Source: Sedimentisphaerales bacterium
GTDB taxonomy: Bacteria; Planctomycetota; Phycisphaerae; Sedimentisphaerales; Anaerobacaceae
DNA: 64,000 nt
Assembly: GCA_963708075.1 (NCBI GenBank)
Contig: OY970194.1
Span: forward strand, 1,760,001 to 1,824,000
Direction: 5' to 3'
Under the pieces are notes generated by a model. That model made no database searches and was not told where the DNA came from. It saw nothing but the letters and a program-made list of their open reading frames with translations. Positions 20,834 to 28,586 of the stretch are shown here, piece by piece. The first letter of the stretch is position 1; each line of letters begins with the position of its first letter. The position numbers and the translations under genes are program-made.

Positions 20834-21013
20834 TTACGGCCGGCCGGGGTCCGGGCGGGACGTGAGTGGATCACCGGGGGCTTCGCATGTCGGGGTGACG
20901 GAGGGTCGCTTGATGCGGACAACGGCTCCGATGAGGACCACGCCGACCCAGACGCCGCTGGCCATGATCAGACCCGCCGCCACGACCACACCGATCATCA
21001 CAGCCGTTTCCAT
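20834..21013 (-). CDS. Small single-span membrane protein (59 aa), translationally coupled to the symporter
   Basis: TAATG overlap with the symporter stop; METAVMIGVVVAAGLIMASGVWVGVVLIGAVVRIKR... Confidence 0.55.
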   Translation of the reverse strand: METAVMIGVVVAAGLIMASGVWVGVVLIGAVVRIKRPSVTPTCEAPGDPLTSRPDPGRP

Positions 21014-22400
21014 TACTTGGACTCCATGAACAGAGCACTCAGGAAATGCCCAAGGAGGTACGCCGCCAGGGCTGCCGCCAAAGCCAGGAGAATCGGGGGA
21101 ATCTGCACGGCATCGTGCCAGATGAATTGGAAAGACAGGGCAACCGCCGCACCGGTGACCATAGATAGAATGCCTGCCAGGGGACGCGGCTTCTTGAGCC
21201 AAAGCCCGAGGACTGCCGCAGGTAGGATCGCCGGCGCCCAGACGGTGTAGCAGATCAGCAGGCCCCGTATGATACTGGGGACGGCTACCGCGGCCGCGGC
21301 CGCCAAAGCGGCAATGCCCACGGTGGCTGCGCGGCCGCATATGAGCGAGGCCCGATCCGAAATCTTCACGAACGGCCTGATAACGTCCTCCGTGAACGCC
21401 ACGGCCCCGGCGTTCAGGAGCGAGTCCAGGCTCGACATGATTACGGAGAGCAACGCCACCAGCAGTATCGCATAGCCTGCCGGCGGCGTGACTGTCTTGA
21501 CCAGTGTCAAGAGCACATCGTCCTCGCCGGTCCCGGCAGGGATGATCGCGCGCGCGACGATGCCCAGCGAGATCATGATCGTGAACCATACCATGCTGAA
21601 CAGCCCCGCCAGGACGAAACTGTTCCTCGACGCCCCGGTCGTCTGCGTTGCAAGGGCGCGGTTCGCGTAAGGCGGTATCAGGGTCTCGCCGAGAAGAAAG
21701 GCGGCTATCAGTCCGAGGATCTGCACCCAGGAGGTGGATCGAAAGCCCACTGCCGTCGCTGCTGTCAATTCGTAGCTCAGTGCAGCGGCGCCGTCGCGCA
21801 ACGGCACAAACATGATGAACAGGAGGATCACCGGCATGAGGATGGTGAACAGGGTGAACTGCAGAGCGTCCGTCATCACGCTGGCCCGGAGCCCGCCGAA
21901 GCTCGTGTACAGTGTCGTTGCAATCGCAATCAGGACGATCGCGATCCACTTGGAAATCCCGAAGGCGTCCTGCACCACGACCCCGGCGGCATTCGCCATC
22001 ACGGCGGCAAATCCCATGCAGAGGCCTACGGAGATCACGCCCGCCAGGATCTGGCACGTGCGATTGTACTTCTGGCCGATGGCGTCGCCGAGGGTGTGAC
22101 AACCGCTGAGCGACCGCAGTCGCGGCGCAATGAACAGGCCGACGAGGATGTTCTGGAGGGAGTAGGCAAGGCCGACGAACAGGAACAGCAGGCCGCTCTG
22201 GAAACCCTTGCCCGCAAAGCCGATGGAGAAGCCGGGACCCACATACGCGGCGCAGAGACTGCCGAAGATCAGGGCAAGAGGCAGGGAACGCTTCGCGAGG
22301 GAGAATTCCGCATACTCGCGGGCAGCGCGGCGCGCACGGCGACAATCCCGAGAATGATGAGATACCCAGCAACGAGCGCCACCGATGCAACCACACGCAC
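21013..22400 (-). CDS. Sodium:solute symporter (SSS family); apparent 1-nt deletion near 22330
   Basis: EFSLAKRSLP..., GPGFSIG, YTSFGGLRASVMTDALQF, SVIMSSLDSLLN; many TM segments; first TM helix (GTG 22400) lies in a different frame. Confidence 0.85.
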
Positions 22401-22440
22401 TATCCTATCGACAAATCAGACTGCCCCATCCGTGCACGCA

Positions 22441-23523
22441 CTATTTCTCGTGCCCTTCCTGAAACGTTTCCTCCGCCAACTCGCTGATCACGGTATCCAG
22501 ATCGGCTTCCGTGCGAATCCACCCGAACCGCGCATCGACGAGGAACGTGCGGTACCATTGAATGAGGTTCTTGGCGAAGTCCTCGTCCTTGCAGTAGAGT
22601 CCGAACGAGATCTCGCCCGCGTGGACGCCCGCCTTGCGGGGCATTTGGGGAAAGGCCAGCAGCACGGAGCTGCGAGACAGGAGAAACTCAAGGTCGGAAA
22701 CCGTGCTGTTGTAAATCCGCAGCCGGCCCGATTCGATCGCCTCGGCATATCGGCGGAACAGGTGCCGGGCCGCGTTGGAGAACCCCGGCACACTGAGATT
22801 CATCGCACGATGTACCCGGACATCCGGATACTCCTCGAGGATCGTGTGGAGCTGGCTGAGGTAGTCGTCCATGGGCTGCCGCTCCCCTTCGAACAGCATG
22901 CAGGTCCACAGCTCGCCGTTGCCCGTGGCGTCGAGCTGGTCCTGGAGCATATGCTTGGCGACGTCGTAGGTTTCGCGGCGGTTGCCGAGTACCTTCAACT
23001 GCCGGTCCATCAGGGCGGTGGCCCAGGGCGGCATGTCACTCGGCAGCGACTCGGGCGGGCAGACGCCCAGCCGCGTCATCAGACGCAGGAACTGCTTGTG
23101 CTCTGACCCGTAGAACCGCCGACCGACCACACTGCCAACATTTCCATTACATTCGAGACCGTACCTCTTATGGTAGCCGAACGACAGGCGATGAATCTCG
23201 AAGCCCTGTTCGACAAGCATCTTCTCCAACTCCCCGATCAGATGGACCGCCTGCTTCTCCGGGGCCTTGTCGATGGACAGGTGCACGTTCGGGCATAGCA
23301 CAACGGGCCGTTTGCCCAGGAGCTTCATCAGGGCGCCAAACTCGTTGACGGCGTCCTCCAACTCCTGCCGGGCGTCATATCGCTCGATGCAGACGAACAT
23401 CACGAGCACGTCCTTGAAGGTGACCCGCGGCTGCGCCGGTGAGATGGTGGACGGGTCGATCCGCGTGCTCGGCTCTTTGTCTTCAAAGTAACAGGAAGAA
23501 CACTGGTAACTATCCAGGATCAT
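22441..23523 (-). CDS. Fusion of an archaeal-type threonyl-tRNA synthetase editing domain (DTD-like) with a PLD/TrmB-effector-like C-terminal domain
   Basis: VLVMFVCIERYD, VVLCPNVHLS and GFEIHRLSFGYHKRYGLECNG align by eye with archaeal ThrRS N-terminal motifs VLVAFISVEKVD, VYPFAHLS and PFGYYKAFKISCKG; C-terminal fold assignment is weaker. Confidence 0.72.
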   Translation of the reverse strand: MILDSYQCSSCYFEDKEPSTRIDPSTISPAQPRVTFKDVLVMFVCIERYDARQELEDAVNEFGALMKLLGKRPVVLCPNVHLSIDKAPEKQAVHLIGELEKMLVEQGFEIHRLSFGYHKRYGLECNGNVGSVVGRRFYGSEHKQFLRLMTRLGVCPPESLPSDMPPWATALMDRQLKVLGNRRETYDVAKHMLQDQLDATGNGELWTCMLFEGERQPMDDYLSQLHTILEEYPDVRVHRAMNLSVPGFSNAARHLFRRYAEAIESGRLRIYNSTVSDLEFLLSRSSVLLAFPQMPRKAGVHAGEISFGLYCKDEDFAKNLIQWYRTFLVDARFGWIRTEADLDTVISELAEETFQEGHEK

Positions 23524-23544
23524 ATCGTTACGTCGATTCTCTCC

Positions 23545-23853
23545 CTACTGCTGGTTTACCTGGCTTCGGCTGTGTTCCCGCGTTGACGCCTTCGCCTTCT
23601 TCGAGCGAGAGACAATCGCAGCATCAACGCGGGAGATAAAAAGGCCCACATCCGGCGTCACGACGTTGTCCCCAAACCCCGCGCCGTTCATCAGCCGCAC
23701 CACCTCCGTGGCCTCCCAGAAGTCCGGAGATTCGCTGATGCGCTTGGCCTCCTCGCGAGTCAGCGACTTCAGGAAGGTGGGCAGCCCGCCGTCACGAAGC
23801 GAAGCGGCGTAATCCGCCAGTAGCTCCTGGATTTCTCTGTCTGCGTTCGACAT
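23545..23853 (-). CDS. Small soluble hypothetical protein (102 aa), possible anti-sigma/partner
   Basis: MSNADREIQELLADY... preceded by AAGGAG; directly downstream of an ECF sigma. Confidence 0.65.
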   Translation of the reverse strand: MSNADREIQELLADYAASLRDGGLPTFLKSLTREEAKRISESPDFWEATEVVRLMNGAGFGDNVVTPDVGLFISRVDAAIVSRSKKAKASTREHSRSQVNQQ

Positions 23854-23912
23854 CGGTAACTGCTCCTTTACGACCCGTGCAAACTGCACCAGGCAATCTT
23901 GCGAGAAGGCGA

Positions 23913-24485
23913 TCAGCCTTCTTCGCAGTACTCCTGCAACATTCGCCGCAATTTCAAAACCGTCCGAAATTCCAGCATCTTCACCGCGCCGACCGTCGTT
24001 CCCAACTGGGTGGCGATCGCCCGGTTCGACATCCCGGCCATCCACAGCTCCATCGCCTTGCGCTCCCGGGCCTTGAGCTTGCCGAGCATCCGGTGCAGGA
24101 TCTGCTTGAGCTCGGTCTGCGAGAGCAGGTCGCACAGGCCCAGTTCCGGCGCCACAAGGTTCTGCATATCGTTCGCGGACAGGTACGAGCTGCGATTCAT
24201 CCGCCGGTACACCTCGCGGAGGCGCTTCCGCATGTAGTATAGATACACCGTTCGCAGAAGCTGCCTTTCGCTGTCGATGGCCCGCAGATGGTCCGGGTTT
24301 TCCCAGATATCCGCGTACACATCCTCCAGCACGTCCTCGCACTCGACCTCGTTACCGAGATAGCGATGCAGATGCCGTATGAAGATGCCAAAGGTCGATC
24401 TGACAAAAGGCTCCATCGCCCGACGTCGTGACTCGGCGTCGGTGGATGTGAGCTCCTTCAAAGCGTTTCGCAGCGCTTTATCCAT
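23913..24485 (-). CDS. Divergent ECF-type sigma-70 factor
   Basis: Region-2-like ECEDVLEDVYADIW; region-4 HTH LKARERKAMEL..AGMSNRAIATQLGTTVGAVK. Confidence 0.82.
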   Translation of the reverse strand: MDKALRNALKELTSTDAESRRRAMEPFVRSTFGIFIRHLHRYLGNEVECEDVLEDVYADIWENPDHLRAIDSERQLLRTVYLYYMRKRLREVYRRMNRSSYLSANDMQNLVAPELGLCDLLSQTELKQILHRMLGKLKARERKAMELWMAGMSNRAIATQLGTTVGAVKMLEFRTVLKLRRMLQEYCEEG

Positions 24486-24603
24486 ACCGGTTACAGCATT
24501 CCCCGATTCTCACTGATTTTCGGCCTCTCCACCGGCAGGAAGACGGGATCAATCCCGCTGCCGTCTGCGGCGGAAGGTGCGAGGTCCGACCCCGCAAATC
24601 TCC

Positions 24604-24632
24604 ATTCTATCGTAGAGATATGAGGAATTCAA
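24604..24632 (-). promoter_or_regulatory. Putative sigma70 promoter of the ECF/editing-domain cluster
   Basis: Minus strand TTGAAT-N17-TAGAAT about 120 nt upstream of the sigma start. Confidence 0.45.
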
Positions 24633-24755
24633 CCGGTAAACGCCCATGCCTAATGCCGACAAAAGCATCCTCAGAGACACTTCTGAGGATATGACCGACC
24701 CTCTGTCAGATACGAATCAACCAGATCACGTCGAAACCATCTCCTCACTTGACCC

Positions 24756-25223
24756 TCAGAATCCATATGCCGGCCAGAGCTCCTCTTCCGTCGGCAGATG
24801 GTCGTAGAACTCACCGCGCGTGCCGATGTAGCCAATCCCTTGTCTTCGCAGCCGCACCCGGCTGATCGAGCCGTTGCTATTGGTGATGTCCACCGTCACG
24901 TAATCCATTTCCTGCCGCATGTGGACGCGCTCCGTCGGCGTGTGGCTCTTGTCCTCTTCGTTGCCGATCATGTATCCGGCCGCTCCTCCGATCGCCGCGC
25001 CGAGAATTGTGGCTCCCGCAGTGCCGCCAATCACCTGGCCAAGCCCGGCTCCCGCCAGCACTCCTACCGCCGCCCCGGTTTGCGCGGCGGTTCGGCAACC
25101 TGCCGACATCAGCAAACCGGCCGCCATCCCTGCCAGGACGATAGTCCCGGCTCTGCCCGTCGCTACGCCGGACCTTTCTGTGTCCGAAAATGACTCGACG
25201 GCATCGGATGGCTTAGAGCTCAT
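24756..25223 (-). CDS. Glycine-zipper lipoprotein
   Basis: Lipobox-like SAGC followed by TGAAVGVLAGAGLGQVIGG...GAAIGGAAGYMIGNE. Confidence 0.78.
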   Translation of the reverse strand: MSSKPSDAVESFSDTERSGVATGRAGTIVLAGMAAGLLMSAGCRTAAQTGAAVGVLAGAGLGQVIGGTAGATILGAAIGGAAGYMIGNEEDKSHTPTERVHMRQEMDYVTVDITNSNGSISRVRLRRQGIGYIGTRGEFYDHLPTEEELWPAYGF

Positions 25224-28107
25224 CATCGTCCTCTTTGTTGACCGGTGCTTGCTCGGTGGCCTGCGTCGTGGCGGCGCCTGCGCTCAGTTGCGTGGCCGAG
25301 TCCTTCTTCGAAACGTCCAGCAAATCCTTTGCTCCAGTATCCGGAACCTTTTGAGTATCCGGCGTGCTCTCAAGGGAGGATGCTTCAGGGGCGGTCGATG
25401 ATGGAGTCGCTGTGGCGGGGTCTACCTGGGTCGCCGATGACTCCTGAGCCTTGGCGCCCGGCGCAGCTTGCGACTCGGAGCCGGCCTTATCCTTCGGCCC
25501 GGCTTCCTTCTCGAGTTTGTCCACAAGTCTGAGCAGCACAGCCACCGCCTCGGTGTTCTTCGCATCCTGGCCCGCCTTCTCCAGAGGCTCGCGGGCATAG
25601 CCTGTCTCTCCGGTGCCCAGCAGATGGTAACCGAGCAGGAGCTGCAGGTCGGCGTTGTCGCCGGACTCATCCTGCTTGTTCAGCAGCTCCTCAATCTGTT
25701 TGAACAGCACATCGTCATTGGCATACAGGCCACGAGGATAGAAGACGCCTTCCTTCTCCTTCTCGGGCGGAAGCTTCTTGAGGGCCTCTCTCAGCACCTC
25801 CGCGGCCTTGGAGTACTGCTTGTCGGCAAACAAGGCCTGGGCATATGCGAACGGAAGGATCATGTCTTCCGGCGACAGCTCCTTCGCCGTGGCGAACTTC
25901 TCGGCCGCTGTGGCGTAATCGCCAGACTCGAAGCTCTTGACGCCTTCCTCGAACCTTGTATCCGCCTGTGTCTGCGGCGCCGGCTCCGCCGCTCGCTGTG
26001 CCAGTTTCTCACGGACATCGGCATATCCGCTGTCGTCCGTGCTCTGATAGGTGGTCGCGGAACCATCGTCATTGTAATAGTTGTACGTGTAGTAGTTGTT
26101 CGTCTCTCCCGCGACCTCGGTGGCAACGGGGTAGTATCCGTACCACACGTAGGGATGATAGCCATACCAGTAGTACCGCATATACGGGTAGTCATAGGGC
26201 CAGTATCCACCCAGGCTGATGAACACGTACTTGCGATGGTAGTACGGGTACATATAGTCGAACGAGAAATGCGAACCGAAGTGGTAGCCGATCGTGAAGT
26301 AGTACGACGGCCAAATGACCCGGTGACACAGCCGATGATGCATGTCATAGTAACTATAGAGGTGATGGTAATGATGCGAGATCAGGTCCGGCCGGTCATA
26401 GTACGACGCGTGCAGGTAGGGCCGCCGGTAGCTGTAGTCGAAAGTTGTCGGCCGAAGCGTCCGCTCCGCCAGATTCGTGTCGAGGCTTCTCCTCGCAACC
26501 AGATGGTCGTTCAGCCGGGAGCCGAATTGCTGCCGCCGGGCCGTGGCATCCGCCTGCTGTCTCTGCGGATCCAGAGCCACTTTTCCGCGATCACCCCTCT
26601 GACTGATCACTTCGGCCCTGCGACTGGTTACTCGGTTCTGAAGCTCCGAATTCGTTTGTGCGCCGCGGACGGGTTGAGTCGTCGATAGCGTCGGCATCCG
26701 GGTCTGCGAGCCGGTGGATTCGGCCACCTGGCTCTTCTGCGTCTGCTGACCTGTCCGTCGCGCCTGCATCCGCGAAAGCACTGACTTCCTGTCGGTTGCG
26801 GTCCGCTCCGTGGGACTTGTCGTCGTTTTGGGCGAGACGCCCTGCTCTGTCCCTGCCTTCGGCGCGACGATTTGTCGCGACGACGGCGACGGTGCGGATG
26901 TGGATTTCTCCGCCGGGGCCTTCACCTCACCCGTGGTCGATCCATTCCTCGCACCGACGCGGCCCAGGAGCGACCGTCTGTCGGTCGCACTGCCCTCAGA
27001 TGGAGTCTTTGTCGTCTGAAGCGTGCTCTGCCGCGGCTCCAGACTCTGTTTGGACGTCGTCTTCAGGTCTGCGATTCGTCGCGACTGCTGAGGCTGAGTG
27101 GGCGTGGACGCGGGCTTCTCTGCCACCGGGCTCTGCGATTGCTTCGTTACAGATCCGTTCCTGGTGCTAAGACGGCTCAACAGTGAGCGTCTGTCGCCGC
27201 CGGTGTTTGTGGGCGTGCTCTGAACAACAGGGCCCCGCGATGATGGTGGCGGTGTCACCGTCTTTGGCGCACTGGGCGTACTTGCCGAACCCGACATCGG
27301 TTGCCTCGGCTGCACGGTGCTCTGCTGCCGTGCTGCCATGCGATCCACTACAGAGCTGCGCGTCGTGCCGCTATTCATAGATGTATCCGGCGCGGAGGAT
27401 CGCGGCGTCGCCAGGCTCCGCGTGCTGCCGCTCCGGCTGCCAATCGAGCTGGAAATACTCTGATCAGGCGACCTGGAGAGGCCTCCGGATGAGGACGACT
27501 CACTTCGTGGTGCGCTGAATACGCTTTCCGACCGTGGCTGGCTGGAGGGCGCCCATCTGGTGCTGAAATCCCGTGCCGACTCGCGGCTTGGCGCCGGCGC
27601 GGCAGCCGACGGCGCGGACCTGCTCGAAAACGGGCTCGAACGCATCGTGGCCGGCGGGCTGCTCGGCGTCACCGACGGTCGCGAAGGCGTGATCGAAGGT
27701 GGTGCACTCGGTGTAAACGACGGTCTCGAAGGGGCTATCGAACGCGGCGCACTAGGCGTAAACGATGGCCGCGAAGGAGCCATAGAACGTGGCGCACTGG
27801 GTGTAAACGATGGTCTGGAAGGCGCCGCTGCCGGCGGAGGGCTGAACGATGGTCTGGAGGGGGCCATTGCGGGCGATCTGCCGGAGCTGAACGGGGAGCC
27901 TTGGCTGCGAGATGATCCAAAACTTGGACTTGGGCTCGGACTGGGCCTCACAGCCTCGCGCCTTGCTCCCACACTCTGCAGCGCCGCGCTTCGCTCCGAA
28001 GCGGCCCGTGCCAGACGAGAGCCCGATGACCCGATCAACAGGGCCGCCATGAGCGCCACAGACGTTACGGCTGCTCTGCGGTTTTTTCTCTCACCTGCGA
28101 CAAACAT
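25213..28107 (-). CDS. Large exported low-complexity protein (Ser/Pro/Arg-rich, Tyr/His-rich segment, C-terminal TPR)
   Basis: Signal-like N-terminus after AAGGAG; long S/P/T/R disordered region; Y/H-rich block; TPR-like FEEGVKSFESGDYATAAEKF...YAQALFADKQY. Confidence 0.75.
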   Translation of the reverse strand: MFVAGERKNRRAAVTSVALMAALLIGSSGSRLARAASERSAALQSVGARREAVRPSPSPSPSFGSSRSQGSPFSSGRSPAMAPSRPSFSPPPAAAPSRPSFTPSAPRSMAPSRPSFTPSAPRSIAPSRPSFTPSAPPSITPSRPSVTPSSPPATMRSSPFSSRSAPSAAAPAPSRESARDFSTRWAPSSQPRSESVFSAPRSESSSSGGLSRSPDQSISSSIGSRSGSTRSLATPRSSAPDTSMNSGTTRSSVVDRMAARQQSTVQPRQPMSGSASTPSAPKTVTPPPSSRGPVVQSTPTNTGGDRRSLLSRLSTRNGSVTKQSQSPVAEKPASTPTQPQQSRRIADLKTTSKQSLEPRQSTLQTTKTPSEGSATDRRSLLGRVGARNGSTTGEVKAPAEKSTSAPSPSSRQIVAPKAGTEQGVSPKTTTSPTERTATDRKSVLSRMQARRTGQQTQKSQVAESTGSQTRMPTLSTTQPVRGAQTNSELQNRVTSRRAEVISQRGDRGKVALDPQRQQADATARRQQFGSRLNDHLVARRSLDTNLAERTLRPTTFDYSYRRPYLHASYYDRPDLISHHYHHLYSYYDMHHRLCHRVIWPSYYFTIGYHFGSHFSFDYMYPYYHRKYVFISLGGYWPYDYPYMRYYWYGYHPYVWYGYYPVATEVAGETNNYYTYNYYNDDGSATTYQSTDDSGYADVREKLAQRAAEPAPQTQADTRFEEGVKSFESGDYATAAEKFATAKELSPEDMILPFAYAQALFADKQYSKAAEVLREALKKLPPEKEKEGVFYPRGLYANDDVLFKQIEELLNKQDESGDNADLQLLLGYHLLGTGETGYAREPLEKAGQDAKNTEAVAVLLRLVDKLEKEAGPKDKAGSESQAAPGAKAQESSATQVDPATATPSSTAPEASSLESTPDTQKVPDTGAKDLLDVSKKDSATQLSAGAATTQATEQAPVNKEDDDEL
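27652..27864 (-). repeat. Intragenic tandem repeat, about five copies of an approximately 45-bp unit (APSRPSFTPSAPRS-like)
   Basis: PSRPSFSP / PSRPSFTPSAPRSM / PSRPSFTPSAPRSI / PSRPSFTPSAPPSI / PSRPSVTPSSPP. Confidence 0.8.
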
Positions 28108-28586
28108 GGTTGTCTCCTTTCCTTCCTCCGACGGCACAAGATTCGGCCAGCCCGTTCTGCCGCCGGCGCCCCACACGTCTTATCGTGGGATTGCGATACA
28201 GGATAATACTTCAAAATACTATAGGCGGCCACTATAAATATACGTGGGAAAAGGGTTTACGGTTTGCAGAAACCTTGTCGAAAGCCCGCAAGCCACCCCT
28301 TTTCACAATCATTACAGCCATCTGCACGCCCCTGACTAACATATCGTCGTGTGCGCTATCTTTTCTACTCTAATAAGGCTCGGCGACTAAGCATGGTAAC
28401 AGGAAAAACGAGGTTTCTTCGACTACCTGCAACTTCCTTTCGGACCATTGGCCACGCATCCAGAACTTGTGCAGGCGGCGGCCCCGACGGGACTTATCAT
28501 GTATCTCGGCGTAGTCAGTCGGGCAGGGGCGAACGGTTCCGTGTGCCCGACGTACCTTTTTGATGGCGTTGGGATAAGATTTTGTC

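Follow-up and report, generated by a model that had tools for sequence, protein, structure and literature searches.

The fusion gene and its two domains

The window analysed here is a stretch of 64,000 nucleotides from a Sedimentisphaerales bacterium (contig OY970194.1, positions 1,760,001 to 1,824,000 of the forward strand), and at 22441..23523 on its minus strand lies a gene for a 360-residue protein that joins an archaeal-type threonyl-tRNA synthetase (ThrRS) N-terminal editing domain (NTD) to a predicted phospholipase D (PLD)-fold domain. The reading frame closes with a stop codon at 22441-22443, the start codon is backed by 76 orthologues, each of which begins at the same aligned Met, and a word-index search returned 416 homologues, all of ~360 residues. 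Four segments follow one another along the chain, all on the minus strand: the editing domain, of the fold of the D-aminoacyl-tRNA deacylases (DTD; residues 1-139, 23107..23523); a conserved helical linker with the pattern FYGSE.KQFLRL.TRLGVCPPE (residues 140-172, 23008..23106), modelled as helices 141-151 and 166-173 with a predicted local distance difference test score (pLDDT) of 59-74; the predicted PLD-fold domain, in which the HKD motif is lacking (residues 173-340, 22504..23007); and an acidic C-terminal helix (residues 341-360, 22444..22503; helix 339-359 in the model, net charge -6). The protein as a whole is acidic, with a net charge of -10.

An initial note made from the sequence alone (the original prediction) had placed a Pyrococcus-type ThrRS editing domain at the N-terminus. 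Pfam assigns residues 28-128 to PF08915 (tRNA-Thr_ED) with an E value of 1.9e-17 and a score of 64.1 bits, where the cut-off is 30.2 (66.5 bits in the genome-wide search), and finds nothing else in the protein at E values up to 10, PF02580 (DTD) included. The NCBIfam models of archaeal ThrRS and of the Ser-tRNA(Thr) hydrolase match with their N-terminal ~110 positions and score far under their cut-offs; NF011500, for instance, reaches 44 bits where its cut-off is 362, through profile positions 26-135 of 387 alone. A phmmer search of PDB sequences aligned residues 14-140 collinearly with the NTDs of P. abyssi, M. jannaschii and A. pernix (E values of 9e-10 to 5e-6). An AlphaFold2 model was built from 77 family sequences, the same 77 aligned rows from which the conservation counts below are taken, and has a mean pLDDT of 81.6. 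Its residues 1-139 superpose on the M. jannaschii NTD (4rrf_A) with a Z score of 20.3 and an r.m.s.d. of 1.7 Å over 134 residues in VIA, the DTDs follow at Z 13-15.5 (DTD 1jke, 15.5), and Foldseek matches the domain to 21 NTD entries at E ~1e-11. By profile, alignment and modelled fold, then, the N-terminus is an archaeal-type ThrRS editing domain, as predicted. The short motifs quoted for it are likewise all in place (VLVMFVCIERYD at 39-50, CPNVHLS at 77-83, SFGYHK...LECNG at 114-127 and GNVGSVVGR at 127-135), and neither Pfam nor NCBIfam detects the aminoacylation and anticodon domains whose absence had been noted.

The C-terminal domain had been suspected of a PLD fold from a pattern of short motifs, which are found at 235-240 (VRVHRA), 268-271 (LRIY), 279-282 (EFLL), 287-291 (VLLAF) and 308-324 (GLY..D..F......WY). 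The AlphaFold2 model agrees with this guess in both structure searches. In VIA, residues 173-340 match TrmB (2f5t, Z 11.8; 3qph, 11.5), TrmBL2 (5bpd, 11.5), NucT (11.3), the DUF1669 domain of FAM83B (10.8) and Nuc (10.2), and then Zucchini, PLDs and PPK; the PLD-fold entries matched at Z 10.2-11.8 include 6ehi, 5lzk and 1bys. Foldseek matches the domain to TrmBL2 (5bqt) at an E value of 2.8e-6. As these Z values differ from one another by about one unit at most, the model is silent on whether the domain is closer to TrmB or to Nuc. The missing HxK motif of the original prediction is a family trait: H.K....D occurs in the C-terminal part of 0/77 members, and any H.K there in 2/77. From pattern comparison and secondary structure, E279 and L281 of the E279-F-L-L strand appear to stand where PLD enzymes have their His and Lys. 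We therefore describe the domain as a predicted HKD-less PLD/TrmB-like fold. Neither the winged-helix DNA-binding domain nor the sugar-binding C-terminal subdomain of the TrmB family was found, and the chain ends 20 residues past the PLD fold.

At the level of sequence the C-terminal part is isolated. A phmmer search of 1.84 billion representatives gave 12 matches, every one from the fusion family; a profile search of PDB sequences gave nothing meaningful, a Pfam scan of 48 family C-terminal parts nothing relevant, and an ESM Atlas look-up of residues 145-360 no lead, all matches being under 0.9. With no sequence relative outside the family, the PLD assignment draws solely on the predicted structure. 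The joining of a module that binds aminoacyl-tRNA to a domain from a superfamily that handles phosphodiesters and lipid head groups, together with the strong conservation of the pseudo-active site, would suit an aminoacyl-transferase or another enzyme in which the editing domain docks the aminoacyl-tRNA and the aminoacyl group passes to an acceptor on the PLD-fold domain. We consider this very improbable: it has no precedent, the HKD motif is lacking throughout the family, no membrane segment is seen in the model, and the conserved gene block described below holds no acceptor-pathway genes, those past its last member varying from locus to locus.

The editing pocket and four invariant cysteines

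The pocket residues of the archaeal domain were mapped onto the fusion by the phmmer alignment, in P. abyssi numbering. Pro80, His83 and Lys121 correspond to P78 (conserved in 76/77 rows), H81 (77/77) and K119 (77/77), so the Pro, His and Lys that had been predicted to be kept are indeed kept, and F115-G116 is invariant; the invariant residues of the editing domain are situated in the pocket. Two pocket residues of archaeal NTDs are replaced across the family, Tyr120 by H118 (77/77) and Glu134 by V132 (V, I or T). The latter lies in a segment, G127-N-V-G-S-V-V-G-R-R-F-Y-G139, that is kept family-wide apart from this alternation at 132 and stands in for the cross-subunit GHPLAELSR loop.

The original prediction had given weight to the lost Glu, and this weight does not hold up. 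As reported by Ahmad et al. 2015 (PMC4491819), the Y120A, E134A and double mutants retain activity and Ser/Thr discrimination in the P. abyssi NTD, in the A. pernix NTD and in full-length A. pernix ThrRS-2, and activity is lost with H83A (in the P. abyssi NTD) and K121M. The residues lost by the fusion family are thus dispensable and those it keeps are needed, so that the lost Glu is no argument for an inactive domain. Those authors take neither His83 nor Lys121 to be the catalyst and assign that part to the 2'-OH of the tRNA.

Four Cys residues, C8, C11, C45 and C77, are present in 77/77 rows. In P. abyssi numbering they fall at 8, 11, 44 and 79, core positions of the editing domain, at which the NTD of a planctomycete archaeal-type ThrRS carries A, F, A and Y. 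Positions 11, 42, 79 and 123 of the P. abyssi domain were mutated together in biphenylalanine core designs, according to the titles of the PDB entries, and presumably touch each other. Since C11 and C77 map to two of these co-mutated core positions, a clustered Cys site beside the C77-P78...H81 loop is plausible from the alignment.

Such a site could make the fusion a redox- or metal-switched enzyme, in which C8, C11, C45 and C77, binding Zn or an Fe-S cluster or joined as disulfides, would flank the C77-P78...H81 loop and toggle a deacylase with oxygen or metal. The invariance of the four residues, set against A, F, A and Y in the archaeal-type ThrRS, speaks for it, as does the fact that ligand-type residues have been attracted to the same spot twice, the free-standing planctomycete NTDs described in the last section having a His pair (5/5) and a Cys (4/5) there. 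Against this, the Cys residues may merely pack the core, and no metal-binding family was matched, and we hold the switch to be improbable as a complete explanation; the same site could also be added as a switch to either a deacylase or a sensor.

Gene linkage, distribution and candidate functions

The neighbours of the fusion gene were counted at 80 loci, kept from relatives encoded in 115 species genomes, at which the protein is 69-88% identical and the gene itself is present in every case. Directly upstream of it on the minus strand, at 23545..23853, lies a gene for a 102-residue helical protein that belongs to no known family (78/80 loci), and ahead of this a gene for a 190-residue sigma-70 family sigma factor of the extracytoplasmic function (ECF) type (23913..24485, minus strand; TIGR02937, 55.1 bits against 42.9, and Sigma70_r4_2; 76/80). 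A sodium:solute symporter gene follows downstream (21013..22400, minus strand; Pfam SSF, E value of 6.9e-29; 77/80). Strand and order are the same throughout. Past the symporter a rhamnosidase gene is found at 18/80 loci and one for a TAT-signal protein at 1/80; an extension of the conserved block in this direction was considered and rejected, as the downstream genes vary among the 16 loci compared. In a survey of 81 genomes of the GTDB family to which the window belongs, one per genus, the identical 33 genomes encode the sigma factor (E <= 1e-20), the 102-residue protein and the fusion, and the three genes are adjacent. The stop codon of the 102-residue gene overlaps the fusion start as ATGA in 35/74 loci, and the two genes are separated by no more than 40 nt in 63/74; in the window the gap is 21 nt.

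A sigma-70-like promoter candidate, TTGAAT-17-TAGAAT, precedes the sigma gene (24604..24632, minus strand). It is the sole promoter-like match in 22000-24900 and coincides with the best-conserved block of 69 aligned upstream regions. The ~110-nt leader from this site to the sigma start codon (24486-24603, minus strand) contains a moderately conserved block in 69 loci, and a terminator-like hairpin (24691-24666) sits just upstream of the promoter candidate. Rfam matched no RNA family over 21000-26000, hence no known leader RNA is detected in this 5' untranslated region. The RNA data are thin, consisting of one metatranscriptome contig on the sigma gene and of contigs at 85-95% likeness, from a run guessed to be RNA, on parts of the fusion; they show neither transcription nor co-transcription.

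The 102-residue protein has no match in Pfam or NCBIfam. Its model is all-helical with a pLDDT of 62.9 and finds nothing in the PDB by Foldseek at E <= 0.001, and an ESM Atlas look-up gave matches all under 0.9 and no lead. A predicted complex of the fusion with this protein reached 0.02 where the mark is 0.32, and we count this neither for nor against an interaction. Paralogues of the small protein were seen in other settings. One genome (G597, L089:3029-5336) has a paralogous pair of sigma factor (72% identical) and small protein (55-56% identical) followed by a secreted C45-family autoproteolytic acyltransferase/hydrolase, and another locus (G457:C51, L091:3909-6871) has a paralogue (45% identical) followed by what look by eye to be open reading frames for a DapA-like lyase and another sodium:solute symporter; here the vicinity holds no related sigma factor.

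The symporter gene of the window is split into two frames by one base missing at 22328, with an N-terminal transmembrane segment in one of the frames. Contigs from two DNA runs insert a G behind 22328 and restore a single frame, so the break is an assembly error and no pseudogene; an intact orthologue is 464 residues long (L014:6385-7779). On the other flank, two further genes precede the sigma gene, one for a 987-residue protein (25213-28176, minus strand) that has a long Ser/Pro-rich region, in which APSRPSFTPSAP units recur, a segment rich in Tyr and His, and TPR repeats at the C-terminus, and after it one for a glycine-zipper lipoprotein (24756-25226, minus strand). They are retained upstream of the sigma gene in 52/80 and 35/80 loci, respectively.

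The gene is accessory and lineage-restricted. Within the order, matches are limited to the GTDB family of the window (18/43 genomes, against 0/107 in seven other families), and the 33/81 family genomes that carry it are mostly the larger ones. Named homologues come from metagenome-assembled genomes of Phycisphaerae and Sedimentisphaerales and are labelled "hypothetical" or "threonyl-tRNA synthetase editing domain-containing protein"; repeating the word-index search with a divergent member (P0125) gained one sequence. The high identity among relatives stems in part from shallow phylogenetic depth.

The same genome encodes canonical editing. Its bacterial ThrRS (TIGR00418, 716 bits) has the tRNA_SAD editing domain, the TGS domain and the RHS.AH and DLCRGPH motifs; the gene (C1:2530352-2532013 and upstream, L005 ~3160) is split by a one-base frame error at RHS|AH that leaves TGS in the other frame. 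The splits in thrS and in the symporter gene suggest a single-contig assembly with indel errors. A DTD gene (PF02580) lies at C1:4835825-4836253, and DTD is present in 63/81 family genomes, fusion carriers included. The fusion was also considered as a substitute for a missing DTD or ThrRS editing domain, which is rejected because both are encoded; it is an addition to canonical editing and no replacement of it.

The tight linkage to the sigma factor raises the possibility that the fusion is a non-hydrolysing sensor or regulator, whose editing pocket or PLD pseudo-active site would bind an aminoacyl-nucleotide, an amino acid or the solute of the symporter, and which would control the ECF sigma factor through the 102-residue protein in the manner of a partner switch. 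The closest analogy would be TrmB, a sugar sensor that includes a PLD-like domain and governs a transporter operon. Several observations are consistent with this: the three genes share one set of genomes and are always adjacent, the ATGA overlap suggests coupled synthesis, the symporter gene almost always follows, TrmB and TrmBL2, the top PLD-fold matches, are non-catalytic, and the invariant W206-P217, R239, N242, Y271, S273 and E279 fall on the PLD active-site loops as placed by secondary structure and conservation. However, the invariant His/Lys pair of the editing pocket is just what catalysis needs, and Pfam and NCBIfam find neither a DNA-binding nor a known anti-sigma domain. The paralogous pair with a C45-family enzyme as third gene fits a third gene that is cargo better than one that is a sensor, and the other paralogue of the 102-residue protein has no such sigma factor near it. 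We regard a sensor as the main rival of the deacylase reading set out below and, on this evidence, as rather unlikely. It is a good deal less likely still that the editing domain is itself the sensing head, a pocket gated by a metal or redox site of the four Cys residues that reads tRNA charging or mischarging, or an aminoacyl-nucleotide, with the pseudo-PLD domain and the 102-residue protein passing the signal on to set the activity of the ECF sigma factor; were this so, translation quality control would be linked directly to transcription and solute uptake.

The reading that we tentatively favour as the most economical, with a little less than even confidence, is that the fusion deacylates aminoacyl-tRNAs in trans, with a specificity that is altered or serves as a backup. 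In this proposal a free-standing, probably dimeric enzyme would hold the 3'-terminal adenosine of a charged tRNA, with its aminoacyl group, in the pocket formed by P78, H81, F115-G116 and K119 and hydrolyse the ester, presumably by the RNA-assisted, main-chain-based route proposed for the archaeal domain. With the pocket wall rebuilt by the change from Tyr to His118 and from GHPLAELSR to GNVGSVVGRRF, the preferred substrate may not be, or not only, Ser-tRNA(Thr). The HKD-less PLD domain, located where crenarchaeal ThrRS-E has its anticodon-binding domain, may serve in dimerisation and in binding either the tRNA body or a small ligand. Production from one operon with the ECF sigma factor and the 102-residue partner would make the protein an accessory, condition-linked quality-control factor in addition to DTD and the cis-editing ThrRS. 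It might be of use by standing in for Ser-tRNA(Thr) editing whenever the ThrRS editing site, sensitive to reactive oxygen species, fails; modulation of the bacterial ThrRS editing domain by such species is reported in PMC12003907. Given the symporter, another use might be defence against a mischarged imported amino-acid analogue, for which canavanyl-tRNA deacylase is a comparable case.

The deacylase reading has support from the invariance of H81 and K119 in 77/77 rows, from the membership of the N-terminus in the NTD family by both sequence and model, from the nucleic-acid-binding members (Nuc, NucT, Zucchini and TrmBL2) among the PLD-fold matches, and from the 69-88% identity over 80 species loci. 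PMC4491819 also supplies a precedent for an NTD that works in trans with a non-catalytic tRNA-binding domain, namely A. pernix ThrRS-2. Several points weigh on the other side. Binding of tRNA by the PLD-like domain is a guess, since the protein is acidic and the domain has no detected relative outside the family, and a linked sigma factor is as compatible with a regulator as it is with an effector. An editing ThrRS and a DTD are already encoded, so that no editing gap is evident, and the fusion gene was not found in 48/81 genera of its own family, which makes it dispensable. Finally, the four invariant Cys residues and the rebuilt loop have no counterpart in canonical NTDs and could signify that the chemistry is different or that the protein only senses. 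In either case we infer that the fusion is probably a new, separately regulated device for tRNA proofreading or sensing. Should it be active, a bacterium would have a trans-editing factor of the archaeal kind, in which a new partner domain binds tRNA or a ligand and the substrate, too, may be new; should it be a sensor, it would illustrate how an editing domain can be taken over for signalling.

Known systems and other planctomycete PF08915 proteins

The fusion has the fold, the collinear motifs and the Pro, His, Phe-Gly and Lys residues of the aminoacyl-A76 pocket in common with the archaeal ThrRS NTD (1y2q/2hl1, 4rrf). It differs from that domain in being bacterial and outside a synthetase, in having His for Tyr120 and GNVGSVVGRRF for the Glu134 loop, and in its four core Cys residues. 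The most similar arrangement is that of ThrRS-E and A. pernix ThrRS-2, which are free-standing, of similar length and, like the fusion, composed of an NTD and a non-catalytic C-terminal module. According to PMC4491819, A. pernix ThrRS-2 consists of the NTD and an anticodon-binding domain and acts in trans. In the fusion, by contrast, the C-terminal module has a predicted PLD fold and does not appear to be an anticodon-binding domain, and the host has a fully editing ThrRS.

DTD and ATD, which are free-standing dimeric trans-editors, have the DTD-like fold in common with the modelled editing domain (Z 13.9-15.5). The fusion is, however, 11-16% identical to them and has no Gly-cisPro motif evident in its sequence; the position of the NTD Lys, kept in the fusion, is occupied by Met in DTD (PMC4491819). 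TrmB, TrmBL2 and the DUF1669 domain of FAM83 resemble the C-terminal domain in having a PLD fold without a working HKD motif (Z 10.8-11.8 with the model), and FAM83 is described as a pseudo-PLD (PMC6008594). The fusion differs in having no winged-helix DNA-binding domain and no C-terminal sugar-binding barrel, and it is without sequence similarity to these proteins.

A full-text literature search found no paper on a bacterial PF08915 protein, on the NTD-PLD architecture or on its operon, which does not prove their absence from print; PF08915 is named in one preprint on domain combinations. Although Pfam labels this NTD domain "Archaea-specific", PF08915 is matched in 40/401 Planctomycetota genomes, and 30/39 of the matches other than the fusion lie in open frames of no more than 200 residues. 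In bacteria the domain takes three forms: a full archaeal-type ThrRS, free-standing His/His/Cys proteins of ~140 residues, and the pseudo-PLD fusion tied to an ECF sigma factor. At 64 bits the fusion scores far under the other planctomycete NTDs (88-136 bits).

Five free-standing proteins of ~140 residues, which fall in this 88-136-bit range, were aligned (L093:3924-4340, minus strand; L094:4003-4419, minus; L095:3676-4089, plus; L096:3874-4302, minus; L098:4069-4482, minus). In all five, C45 and C77 are each replaced by His, and in four of the five the essential Lys is replaced by Cys. From these alignments they look like a separate subfamily, possibly metal-dependent. The full archaeal-type ThrRS is represented by a 634-residue protein of one planctomycete genome (G225, L097:750-2651, minus strand) with the tRNA-Thr_ED domain, the class II core and the anticodon-binding domain. 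Its editing motifs, YPYVHLT, FGWYKAF and GHPLSE, are canonical, and among the bacterial relatives aligned none is closer to the fusion N-terminal domain (25% identity).

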